Shown here piece by piece: positions 23,050-51,153 of a DNA stretch of 64,000 nucleotides (position 1 is its first letter; each line of letters begins with the position of its first letter). The stretch comes from Dictyostelium discoideum (taxonomy: Eukaryota), in assembly GCA_000004695.1 (NCBI GenBank), contig CM000151.3, positions 320,001-384,000 of the forward strand. Reading direction: 5' to 3'. The notes under the pieces are model-generated. The model had not been told where the DNA came from. It did not search any database and saw nothing but the letters and a program-made list of their open reading frames with translations. A program made the position numbers and the translations under genes.

Positions 23050-25790
23050 TCATCTTTAATTAATAAGATGATAAAGATAATGATAATAATTGTGAATTAG
23101 AGAAAAAGAATTTAAAATCAATTAAAGAAATTGCAAAATCATATTGTATAGAAATAAATCACTTAAATAAACAAGAAATAATTGAAAGGATTAAAATTGT
23201 AAAAAAAAAGAAAAAGAGAATATGAAGAAGAACATGAACGAAAAGAAAATACTAATTCATTCAATAAAATTAACAATTACAGATAATATAGAACCAATTG
23301 AAATATTATTTTGGAAATTGTTTAGAAATAAAGCAATTTATAAAAAGATATTCTCATTTATGTATAACCAATATTCATTTAGTTACGATTCAGTATCGTC
23401 AATAACTAAACTAATAGATTCAAATCAAATTAGTATTTTAAGAGAAAAAGCTTATAGAAATTGTAGATATTTAGAATTTGGTGAAACTTGTTGGCGTAAA
23501 GAGTCTGATCAATCTAGTTGGCGTAAAGATTTAATTTTAATTTATTTAAAGAAATTATTTGAAATAATTAAAAATGATTTCAAATTTTATAGAAACTTTT
23601 TCAAAATTCAAAGGTATTATTACTCTTCACCAATTTATGTATCAACTGCAATAATACAATCAAAGAATTTAGAAATTTAGAAATTATTTATAAATGAATT
23701 CAATTACCAACCAACAAAAACAGATCTTTTAAATTCAATCGAGACAGGTTCAAATAAAATCATCAAATATATATTAGAATTAAAAAAATCAAACTCACCA
23801 TCATCAACATCATTTGAAACATCATTAAATAACACTGATTTTGGTGAGAAATCAATCGGGTTAGATGAAATTCCAAAAAATGATAATATTTTTAAAGGAT
23901 TATTATGTTAAATAACATTGGTAATGTAATAATAATAATAATAGTAGTAGTTGTAATAATAGTAAATTAACAATAATTAAAAACCTCAAAACTAAATATC
24001 AGATTAATGAAAGATCAACATTAAAAAGATGAATTACCACTTGTAAATTAATAATAAAATTAAAGATATTATCTGAATCAGAAAAAGAAAAAGAAAAAGA
24101 ACAAGTTTCAACTTCAATAATATTATTAAAAGTATCTTTAGAATCAGTTCCAACAACAATTCAAGAATTGAAAATTTTGAAGTAAAATTAGATAATAATA
24201 GATTAAAATCAATGCTAGATGACCCAATAAACTACACTGCTACTGATTATAATGATAGTGAAATTAAAATTTTTATAAAGAAATCATTAATATTTATATT
24301 ATTCAACAACAAATATTACAAATTCTTTATATTTACATCAATATTATAATAATGAAATTAGTAACGTTAATTTAAATTTCATTAAAGAAATTCATTTTAT
24401 TGAAATTGCATTTAGATTTGGAAATTGTGAAATTTTATCAAAGGTTACCGATGTAAATAATATATATGGACTATTCAATTCTAAAACACTATTATTACCA
24501 AATAATAATAAAGATATTAGTAGTTTAGGAAATTATAATATTCTATTCTCACATTGTTGTAATGATAATAAAGAGAAAAAGATGAAATTCATGGATCAAC
24601 TATCAATTGAAAGTGTATACCAAACAACATTATCCTACTATATGTTCATTATGCTCATAGTTCATAATGATATTGAACTATTGAGATATTATTGCAGGAA
24701 TAGGGGAATGAATTTTAATTTTTATATTGATTTTCAAAGTTTAGATGTTCAACCAACTTATTATATAGAATCAACAGAGATGTTAGATTATTTATTTAAT
24801 AACCATATTAGATACTTTTTAGATCCTTTTTATACTGGGAATTATAGTACACATTTTAAAAGTTTAATACTATTAAAACATTTTGAATCATTATTGTTTA
24901 AAACAGGACAGCTTCAATTAGAGGAAAATGATAATCTTGTTTGCTTTATAAAAAAAGAAGATAAAAGATATAATAATATTCAAAATAAAAATTCAAGAAA
25001 TATCAAGATTTTGTTGATTAATCATTTTTCATCAAATCCATCAATATACTATAATGAAAGATTAGATCATCAATTATTTTTAGTACTCACCAGCAGTAAT
25101 GACGATTCATCATCATCTTCATCATCACCACCAATCAACTTTGAAGTATTAAAAGATTTAGCAATCGATGCACTCAAATTTGATATTAATCTATTTCATT
25201 CAAGAACATTAACAAAAAATCATTATACCAAGAATTATTTGAAATTTATAGAATGGATGTTTTTAAACTATAATGATGAAATGAAAAAAGGTGGTCATTT
25301 TTATCATAATGAAGTCTACTATTTCCATTTATTAATGTCAATTGATCAATTTGATTATAATAATAATAGTAACGATTTAAAAGAAAAAGGTGGTACTACT
25401 ATTAATATTGAAAAAAATGCTTAAATTAATTATTCTAGTTAAAGAATTAACACCTTATTTATTTGAAGCAAATAATTTTAAATTTTTAAATTGGTTTTTA
25501 ACAAACATTAAAGATTATCATCATCAATTAAAATTATCATCATCATCACTCAAAACAAAACCAGATAAGGAATCAACTACGGTAGGAGATATTGTTTGTT
25601 CAATTTTATCTTTTATTTCAAGCAATTCAAGATTAAAAATACTTGAATATATTCAAAACTTTAGTTTCATTTTAAAGAATAAACCAAATAATGGAGTTTT
25701 AAATCCTGGTCAATTTTATTTTTATCACTTTCTTGTTCAATTAATATTTCAGAATTTCTTTTACAATTCATTCCAATCATGAATTTAATT
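23050..25790 (+). pseudogene. Family-2 paralog, copy A, degraded (multiple frameshifts and stops)
   Basis: Collinear with the intact copy 38067-40898 (…LKSIKEIAKSYCIEINHLNKQEIIERIKIV...; ORFs 23222-23680, 24582-25424 and 25390-25782 lie in different frames). Confidence 0.6.
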
Positions 25791-26283
25791 CAAATGAAAT
25801 CTTTGAACCATACTTTAAAAATAATTTTAAATATCTAACAAATTAATAAAATAATTGATGATGACCATTCTTCATACAAACCAGCATTACCAAAATTATT
25901 GGACATAATTATTTATTTATTTACTTATTTAGATTTGGATGATTTGGATCAACAACAGCATCAAGTTATTTAGTAGTGATAGTGGAACATCAAAAACTAC
26001 TAATACTACACAGCTAACCAAAAGCAATAATAATCAATAATAAAAAAACTCATGGATTAATTATAGTAACAATGTTGATGACAAGAATAATTATAATTTT
26101 AATAAAAAAAAAAAAAAAAAAAAAAATCTTTTATATCTTTTTATTTTTATATTTTATTTATGACTATTAAATATTAATAAATAAAGATAAAAATGGAAAT
26201 ATATAAAAAATTTTTTTAATATTTAATATTTAATCTGAATTTTACAATCTTTTTTTTTTTTTGTTACTCTAATATTCAATTTT

Positions 26284-26480
26284 TTTTTTTTTTTTTTTTT
26301 TATTAAATTAACAATTACAGATAATATTGAACCTACTGAAATATTATTTTGTTTAGAAATAAGGCAATTTATTAAAAGATATTCTCATTTATGGATATCC
26401 AAATCTCAATAACATATGATTCAATGTCATCAATAACACAACTAATAGATTCAAATCAATATGGTATAATTAACTCTTAC
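26284..26480 (+). pseudogene. Family-2 internal fragment (region LTITDNIEPTEILF..KIFSFMD..TYDSMSSIT.LIDSNQ)
   Basis: Homology ends abruptly at 26480, where a GC-richer unrelated segment begins. Confidence 0.5.
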
Positions 26481-49800: not shown

Positions 49801-50127
49801 TTTGGGAAAATGAAAATAAAAAAAAAAAAAAAAAAAAAAAAAAAAAGTTTTGTTGGGGAAAAAAAAAAAAAGTTTTGGCGCAAAAAAAAAAAAAAAAATA
49901 AAATAAAAAAAAAAAAAAATAAAATAAAAAAAAAAAAAAATAAAAAAACTTATATAGAACTAATAATCAAATAAAAGATAATAATTTAATAAACTTTATT
50001 TGTTTTTTGAAAAAAAAAAAATTTAGGGTCAGTGATTTTTTTTTTTCACTACGCTACTGTAGTGAAATTAAATAATAAAATTCACTACGCTACTGTAGTG
50101 AAATTTTATTGAAAATTCCCTACAACA

Positions 50128-51153
50128 TTATTGGATATATCAAAATCAGTAAATCAATTGGGTGATAGTTGTGGTGGTAGTATTGGTATTTGTAGTGGTA
50201 GAGGTATTCATTCTTCTAATGGTCTTGTTAGCTTAATAAAAGGTATAACCTTTGGAATTGGTAGTAATGATTTTTTCGACTTTAAAAGAAATAAGAATTA
50301 TGCAGATTTTGCAAAACACTTTGCTTCAAATCCACAAATTTACAATAGTGATAAATTAGATCACAATGAATTGTTTTTATTATTCACTACTGCTGTATCA
50401 TCATCATCATCATCATTTTCATCTAAAATTCCAATTCACTTTGAAACATTAAGAAATTTATTAATTAATGCAAAAGCTTTTGGAAGAAAACCAATCATTG
50501 AAAGAACAAAACCAACACCCATACAATGCCATTATTCAAAAGAATATTTAAAATTTTTGGATTGGATGTATATAAATTATAATAATGGAATTGAAGATCA
50601 AGATCAATTCTTAGGTATGATTAAAGAAAGATATAAACACCATTTACTTATTACAATTGATAGATTAAATCTTAACAATAACAATTATTTTGATGGTAAT
50701 GAAGAAGGAGATACAATTTATATTGAAAGATTAGGTTTCTTAACAAATGATGTCATACGTTTCACCCCATATTTATATGAAATTAATAATTTTAAATTTT
50801 TAAATTGGTTTTTAACAATCATTCAAAAACATCACAATTCTATGCCAACAACCGAACATCATATTTTATGTATTAAAGAAATGATTTACACATTTATGGA
50901 ATATATTATATCAAATTCAAAATTAGAAATACTTGAATACATTCATCAAAATTTTCATTTCATTTTAAATAAAAAATCAAATGGTGGAATATTAAATATT
51001 AAAGATTTGAAATCTTTTTTAATTTCATCACTTAATAGAGGTTCAATTAAAATTTCTAAATTCCTTTTTCAATTCATTACCATCACTAAAAATGAATTTG
51101 AAAAAAATTTAAATGAAAAAACAAAATCTTATTTTAAAAATATGTTAGAATAA
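50128..51153 (+). pseudogene. Family-2 paralog, copy H, 3' half (C-terminal about 340 codons), downstream of the Tdd-4-like insertion
   Basis: See 45062-46283. Ends ...ISKFLFQFITITKNEFEKNLNEKTKSYFKNMLE*, as in the intact copy. Confidence 0.65.

Follow-up and report, generated by a model that had tools for sequence, protein, structure and literature searches.

The array of related coding sequences between positions 23050 and 51153 of a 64,000-nucleotide stretch of Dictyostelium discoideum DNA (assembly GCA_000004695.1, contig CM000151.3, positions 320,001 to 384,000; hereafter the window) raises three questions: how it arose, whether it attracts the transposons found among its members, and what its intact member, copy G, encodes. 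The answer that we hold to be probable is that the array represents a Dictyostelium-specific tandem gene family under birth and death, with a proposed nuclear role for its protein. This is ordinary gene-family birth and death and not a new system: its genes are annotated, its transposon families are known and so is the pattern of evolution. For a model organism it offers a clean textbook case of the process, in which the transposon insertions can be dated, and it opens no long-standing question.

The array consists of units of ~2.9 kb that were duplicated head to tail. Of these, copy G alone has kept an intact open reading frame (ORF) in the AX4 haplotype, transcribed during development, and the other copies have decayed through frameshifts, stops, internal deletions and truncations. 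The dead copies later received DNA transposons by ordinary cut-and-paste insertion with intact target-site duplications (TSDs), namely a 2.2-kb terminal-inverted-repeat (TIR) element in fragment C and TDD-4 in copy H. A Tc1-like element occupies the place where the 5' end of copy H is missing, and a long interspersed nuclear element (LINE) abuts relic I.

Copies of the family and their decay

Copies were located in the window by tblastn with the 943-aa protein of copy G, and a DNA-level self-comparison added their flanks and relic I. The G+C content of the window is ~20%, and a permissive blastn in which low-complexity filtering was disabled returned mostly A/T runs. Eight copies or fragments (A to H) lie within 23050-51153 and a ninth, relic I, is found at 57527-57655, all on the plus strand. 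Chance is excluded as the origin of copies A to H because their tblastn E-values range from 4e-8 to 0. The initial annotation had counted nine copies or fragments with G alone intact, which is correct.

Copy G (38067-40898; tblastn 38067-40895) is the sole full-length uninterrupted ORF of the array in the ORF list and is 100% identical to DDB_G0271438 of D. discoideum AX4 (chromosome 2), a gene coding for 943 aa, which places the array in a reference genome that is well annotated. The duplicated unit begins ~60 nt before the ATG and ends ~20 nt after the stop codon, measures ~2.9 kb and is arranged head to tail. Identity between paralogues is 80-85%. Copy A (22951-25852) is an old full-length pseudogene with 66% nucleotide identity to G over 3,080 nt, whose tblastn span (23091-25713) runs through 4 reading frames with 9 in-frame stops and 35-65% amino acid identity. 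Its homology starts at 22951 and its ATG lies at 23016, slightly upstream of where the initial annotation had it begin; the copy coordinates were otherwise correct overall.

The remaining members are broken in different ways. Fragment B (26300-26473), corresponding to G residues 82-140, has a frame change and one stop within its 170-nt tblastn span (26302-26471) and shares 83-87% nucleotide identity with E, F and G. Fragment C is a C-terminal piece carrying its own stop and frameshift. Its left part (27798-28021; tblastn 27799-28025; G residues ~817-893) ends in the ATTAAC target-site copy of the inserted TIR element, and its right part (30207-30377; tblastn 30196-30300) comprises G residues ~889-943 and the 3' flank. 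Fragment D (31402-31785) is a partial 5'-end duplicate, with a 102-codon ORF at 31471-31776 (tblastn 31474-31776) and 81.7% nucleotide identity to the 5' end of copy E (31881-32265). Copy F (35341-36586; ATG at 35407) is a pseudogene without 3' end in which large internal deletions have left residues 10-176, 529-609 and 688-834, spread over 3 frames with 3 stops (tblastn 35410-36586). Copy H lacks its 5' end and starts at G residue 228; it is found as a left part (45083-46283; tblastn 45083-46281) and a right part (50133-51153; tblastn 50170-51150; G residues 617-943). The loss of its 5' end beside a Tc1-like element and its splitting by a Tdd-4-like element had been recognised from the start, but not the two additional frameshifts (near 45169 and near 45299) that precede its long open frames. 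Relic I is a ~130-nt remnant of the C-terminal region (TPFSYEINFFNFLNWFLTKIKN), of which 100 of 134 nt match G 40451-40577 in a low-stringency DNA comparison (core 85% over 67 nt).

A motif of ~18 nt, roughly (g/c)ACAG..ca.a.ca, is present in D, E, F and G immediately 5' of ATGAA and immediately 3' of a T-run. It had been described as common to all copies, which holds for these four but not for copy A, whose leader differs and is C-rich (ccaccaccacaacaATGAAA), nor for three of the five intact wild-strain copies, which are without the gacag part and have only ...aacaATGAA left. The G-type wild-strain copies retain the motif. The remaining four fragments of the window have no 5' end. The motif is best read as belonging to the duplicated unit, in which it forms a short conserved leader, rather than as an independent element.

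The status of copy E (31938-34690) determines whether AX4 has one or two functional members here. Its two ORFs (31938-33212 and 33452-34690) result from one frameshifting deletion at ~33165-33209. The tblastn match is likewise in two parts (31941-33164 and 33209-34669), with residues 10-416 in one frame, residues 450-930 in another and no stops. At the break 34 residues of G face 44 nt, which corresponds to a ~58-nt deletion relative to G. A sequencing error, considered when this single break was first reported, is not its cause since the same break is found in the independent assembly GCA_054883475.1, whose corresponding locus (L001) differs from the window across 32192-34690 by one substitution (34455) and is identical at the break.

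The AX4 annotation spans the break of copy E by a 74-nt GT..AG intron (33200-33273) in a two-exon gene, DDB_G0271166, whose 892-aa product (P0006) matches exon 1 to 33199/33200 and resumes at 33274. Read in the frame used after the break, the annotated intron codes for LIEIAFRFGIYEILESY, which is homologous to residues ~450-466 of G, and an intact E-type relative from a wild strain (P0004) retains the segment missing from copy E. Owing to these two features copy E is, judging from sequence, most likely a pseudogene and its intron an annotation rescue. The other reading, that DDB_G0271166 is a working gene with a real, newly formed intron and that AX4 has two functional members at this locus, is unlikely but keeps some weight. 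The intron is canonical, the spliced product has stop-free exons, the lesion is stable in two assemblies and the second assembly likewise has a gene model there. Against this, homology to coding sequence can still be recognised within the intron in the frame used after it, and the spliced product is without ~50 residues that are found in G and P0004. In addition, the 5' splice site GTTTGT appears weaker than the Dictyostelium consensus GTAAGT, and no expression report for DDB_G0271166 was found in the literature. This gene is therefore flagged as a probable pseudogene with an annotation-rescue intron.

Strain differences and turnover of the family

The window was compared with L001 and with two loci from wild D. 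discoideum (L002 and L003), the latter covering 22.8 kb each around one family gene. Over 12 kb of unique sequence L001 and the window are separated by ~1 substitution. Because of this near-identity the strain of L001 is taken to be AX2-214, probably correctly; this laboratory strain is among the recent Nanopore plus Illumina assemblies of Dictyostelium. Except for the two features discussed below, every lesion within the range of L001 recurs there base for base: E has the same break and F the same deletions, H is truncated and frameshifted alike, and fragment C contains the TIR element flanked by its TSD. The 5' end of copy E is arranged differently: the window has fragment D and the E 5' end (31402-32265), and in L001 their place is taken by just one 5' end, D-like and joined to the E body (3847-4222), a 471-bp indel. 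A gene-conversion patch had been envisaged for the differences between window and L001 at the E 5' end and was rejected on account of this indel, which has its origin either in unequal recombination or in a difference between the assemblies.

Two structural features of the AX4 reference, the 471-bp D/E 5'-end duplication and the TDD-4 insertion, are absent from the independent assembly, and a paralogue identity of 80-85% could mislead an assembler. It is nevertheless highly improbable that the frame breaks and insertions are artefacts of a repeat-rich reference, given that L001 has all the other lesions it covers in identical form and that TDD-4 is flanked by a perfect 5-bp TSD at a site which is contiguous in L001, as real transposition yields. 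Birth and death of the copies is preferred, and unequal recombination among paralogues would keep reshaping the array. The latter is suggested by the D/E 5'-end duplication differing between near-isogenic strains and by the triplicated N-terminal module of P0004 (ACTFIR_012065, an E-type protein of wild D. discoideum), which has three tandem ~70-residue modules, each made of an acidic and a helix-extended-helix part.

The wild strains have more full-length ORFs, three in L002 and two in L003, accompanied by differently broken copies. The set of intact copies, and of those with a partial duplication or an insertion, varies between near-isogenic and wild strains, in agreement with the rapid turnover that had been proposed for the family. 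A neighbour-joining tree of the C-terminal third resolves E-type, G-type and H-type lineages and two further ones, which are older than the strains and were differentially retained. Ratios of nonsynonymous to synonymous substitution (dN/dS, Nei-Gojobori) between intact copies range from 0.26 to 0.86 and are ~0.55 for orthologue-like pairs (G versus wild G-type copies), which indicates fast evolution with some constraint. The N-terminal module is better conserved than the protein as a whole, with a mean column identity of 76% (nine sequences) against 44% (fifteen sequences), the two values coming from different sets.

A profile search of 1.84 billion representative sequences returned only 67 proteins. 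Three AX4 proteins were retrieved (G0271438, G0271166 and G0268918). All 10 distant matches that were checked belong to Dictyostelium species (discoideum, cf. discoideum, citrinum, firmibasis, dimigraforme and purpureum), which upholds the view of a lineage-specific family.

A multicopy, strain-variable family set among transposons might itself be part of a mobile or selfish element instead of a host gene family. This is extremely unlikely. The family copies are tandem, in the same orientation and at one syntenic locus in three strains; the unit has no terminal repeats, no target duplications and no transposase, reverse transcriptase or integrase domains. The dN/dS of the orthologue-like G-type pairs and the developmental regulation of copy G also argue for a host gene.

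The protein encoded by copy G

The copy G protein begins with an acidic stretch, continues with a helix-extended-helix motif (~residues 23-56) and a basic KRKRE patch, and ends in a body of ~850 aa that is all-helical and includes an ankyrin-like segment. The motif spans ~35 residues (L..IKEIA..y.Is...LKK.EIIEKI). In the AlphaFold model helices 29-38 and 48-73 surround a non-helical extended linker, with a predicted local distance difference test score (pLDDT) of 71-77, and the remaining ~850 residues are all-helical with a mean pLDDT of 66.

The initial annotation had seen an acidic stretch followed by a SAP/HeH-like helix pair. The helix-extended-helix fold is supported, but the SAP profile itself is not matched and Rho_N fits better. 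SAP (PF02037, gathering score 23.9 bits) has no match in G or in nine family N-termini even at E-values up to 10. Rho_N (PF07498, gathering score 24.9 bits) scores 15.2 bits against whole copy G and 21.1 bits against its isolated N-terminus, and matches seven of the nine family N-termini with a best E-value of 1.5e-5. P0004, with its three modules, bears a precomputed PF07498 match. SAP is approached in distant relatives, two of which (P0054 and P0060) reach 21-22 bits (~2e-4), below the cut-off; one SAP-matching distant relative, from D. purpureum, is named "SAP domain-containing protein" in UniRef. Searched against the PDB, the family profile finds the SAP domain of Ku70 (E 0.045) and the N-terminus of Rho (E 0.47). 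With moderate confidence, the N-terminus is assigned to the helix-extended-helix domains of the SAP/LEM/Rho_N kind and appears closest to Rho_N. It shares with SAP and Rho_N domains, such as the C-terminal SAP domain of Ku70 (PDB 1jjr), the same two predicted helices and extended linker. As in many SAP proteins the motif is found at the end of a larger protein, and in copy G it is followed by the basic patch. It differs in that copy G scores below both gathering cut-offs and has neither the cold-shock nor the ATPase part of Rho; its nucleic-acid binding is only predicted.

The proteins had also been called ankyrin-like. No ankyrin profile (PF00023, PF12796) matches copy G at E-values up to 10, hhalign gives a probability of 0.06 for the family versus a consensus ankyrin sequence, and two distant relatives (P0039 and P0064) have only sub-threshold Ank_2 or Ank_3 matches. 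The term describes an apparent resemblance of fold in the predicted model and not family membership. Comparison of the full-length model to the PDB by Foldseek gave only non-significant alpha-solenoid matches (E >= 0.06, template modelling score ~0.1). The KRKRE patch is a candidate nuclear localisation signal, and the copy G protein is predicted to be, and probably is, nuclear. There the helix-extended-helix motif and the basic patch would anchor the protein on chromatin or nucleic acid, and the helical body, including the segment of ankyrin-like repeats, would bind protein partners. This is a first domain reading, helix-extended-helix plus ankyrin-like helical body, for a family found only in Dictyostelium.

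DDB_G0271438 is expressed in a regulated manner. At 16 h of development it has 262 RNA-seq reads in AX4 versus 4 in a mef2A- mutant, and quantitative reverse-transcription PCR shows near-complete Mef2A dependence at all stages (PMC3640940). Within the window the published primers, with up to 4 mismatches allowed, map to copy G alone. One family member ranks among the genes most strongly Mef2A-dependent. The consensus Mef2 site CTAWWWWTAG is not found upstream of copy G and occurs in the window at the chance rate.

In a bolder reading the family members would be conflict-driven, fast-diversifying nuclear factors (engaged in strain incompatibility or in transposon or endosymbiont control), their array haplotypes would vary among isolates in the manner of the allorecognition (tgr) locus, and AX4 would carry a near-null haplotype with one working, Mef2A-dependent member. 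We regard it as very unlikely. Like the array, the tgr genes (Holland et al. 2025, bioRxiv 10.1101/2025.08.01.668227) form tandem runs or clusters of paralogues, include numerous pseudogenes and are gained and lost among isolates of a single species. They differ in coding for surface receptors with TIG repeats, whereas the copy G family is small, its predicted product is helical and intracellular, and no recognition function is known for it. The copy G family is not named in the consulted part of that study.

Mobile elements within and beside the array

The C-terminal fragment C is split by a TIR element, as had been noticed, whose exact bounds are 28022-30200 (2,179 bp, not assigned to a strand). 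It is flanked by the 6-bp TSD ATTAAC (28016-28021 and 30201-30206). The element has perfect termini (TGTCCCATGCC...GGCATGGGACA) and arms of ~100 nt, which between 28064-28135 and 30087-30158 are 92% complementary. Its in-silico excision together with one ATTAAC brings fragment C in frame again (...EGGILTIKELKYF...). No recognisable transposase is present in the element, whose 178-aa ORF has no Pfam match; the element is for this reason probably non-autonomous. A second copy, 93% identical, is found at 52577-53959 on the minus strand. The palindromic left terminus (28039-28125, both strands) matches Rfam RF03716, the mir-7131 microRNA precursor, at 98.9 bits (gathering score 74, E 2e-21) and is near-identical to the consensus hairpin, so that an annotated microRNA hairpin is part of a transposon terminus. 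Neither the right terminus nor the second element copy reaches the threshold of this profile. The literature on thug or DDT elements and on mir-7131 provided nothing usable, and the 2.2-kb element remains unnamed.

The two parts of copy H are separated by a complete TDD-4 DNA transposon (Ginger2/Tdd) of 3,844 bp, at 46284-50127 on the minus strand, with a 5-bp TSD TTATT (46279-46283 and 50128-50132). Its arms of 243 nt are 81% complementary, its termini are TGTTGTAGGG...CCCTACAACA (TGT...ACA) and an ORF at 48704-49075 (minus strand) has a weak match to an integrase core (rve_3, E 5.8e-4). The published TDD-4 measures 3,839 bp, with 260-bp TIRs and a 5-bp TSD (PMC2836005). Size, arm length, TSD, TGT... 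termini and the integrase-like ORF make the window copy a typical TDD-4 with no notable difference, the only particularity being its polymorphism between near-isogenic strains. Comparison of the insertions across strains, as had been recommended, shows that the TIR element of fragment C is present in L001 and that the TDD-4 site is empty there and footprint-free (...CGAATTATTATT|GGATAT..., L001 18113-18118). L001 copy H (17121-19139) is a single 672-aa open frame. When the window sequences 45283-46283 and 50133-51153 are joined, one open frame of 673 codons likewise results. The simplest reading is that TDD-4 inserted into copy H in the AX4 lineage, which suggests that it moved recently in the AX3/AX4 lineage. 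This polymorphism is a possible marker of recent transposon activity.

A Tc1/mariner-type transposase gene, broken or intron-containing, lies at 43275-44852 (plus strand), its 3' side abutting the truncated start of copy H. The ORF 44427-44852 has a DDE_3 match above cut-off (PF13358, E 5.3e-15), and the L001 gene model also has DDE_3. No TIRs or target duplication were found around 40.9-45.1 kb. Note that an uninterrupted T-run of ~105 nt (44183-44287) lies between the ORFs for the N-terminal and the DDE_3 regions. Non-LTR retrotransposon (LINE) sequence occupies the minus strand further downstream, with a reverse transcriptase at 62297-63757 (RVT_1, 2.5e-34) and a second, degraded one at 59108-60004. 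An oligo-T tract (57674-57690, plus strand) adjoins both relic I and the minus-strand LINE sequence, which bears out the earlier observation of a family fragment abutting a LINE 3' end.

The array had been proposed to act as a trap for mobile DNA, that is, as a preferred target in which transposon integration is in excess through its sequence or chromatin. Over a span of 35 kb, three DNA-transposon families and one LINE do contact family sequences, ~27% of 23050-51153 is transposon sequence and the TDD-4 insertion is recent, its site being empty in the near-isogenic strain. Against this, every insertion is in a copy already broken by other lesions, and the intact copy G is untouched; the TSDs ATTAAC and TTATT are unrelated and AT-rich; the sampled sections of the L002 and L003 arrays have no transposon protein of the window and no recorded Pfam transposon domain; and the non-family DNA alongside (52.6-64 kb) is also occupied by transposons. 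These four features render a trap unnecessary, and we consider it a doubtful explanation. The transposons would be present because insertions in dead copies cost nothing, and not through attraction by the array.

Some observations weigh against the combined reading of birth and death, neutral insertion and a nuclear protein. Transposons occupy 7.6 of the 28.1 kb of the interval (~27%) and the genome-wide share in D. discoideum is roughly 10%, which makes this haplotype locally enriched. Only ~23 kb was sampled per wild array, and transposons may be present elsewhere in those arrays. With no TIR or TSD for the Tc1-like element, its causal role in the truncation of copy H is circumstantial. The GT..AG ends of the annotated copy E intron leave splicing possible, and every domain match of the copy G protein falls below the Pfam cut-offs.

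Other sequences are intercalated in the array or follow it. Between copy G and the Tc1-like element is an unrelated orphan host gene (41148-43195, minus strand), whose bounds are projected from the L001 gene model and whose largest ORF (41837-42643, minus strand) had been considered as part of a transposon and was rejected as such, the gene being a single-copy orphan. It has only one homologue, ACTFIW_011095 of wild D. discoideum (84% identical), and no Pfam match. It features a Thr/Ser-rich region and degenerate tandem repeats of 24/72/96 nt (41021-41210) across its 3' end. A tRNA-Val(AAC) gene, detected by ARAGORN and Rfam, lies at 27021-27095 (minus strand) between fragments B and C, with no LINE adjoining.

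An unrelated paralogous family (the "first array") is represented between copies E and F by a ~175-nt fragment in reverse orientation (34937-35110, minus strand), 77-82% identical to 6795-6988, 13324-13502 and 14666-14844, and by a further copy at 54110-55070 (minus strand). Owing to these two copies the two arrays are seen to be interleaved. No relation between the "first array" protein (3360-5456) and the copy G family was found by hhalign. A third, small set of paralogues (51762-52216, 55389-55796 and 56783-57224, and 55134-56047 versus 56524-57435) shares 71-76% nucleotide identity and includes ORFs at 55472-55858 and 56889-57284 (both minus strand) with no Pfam match.

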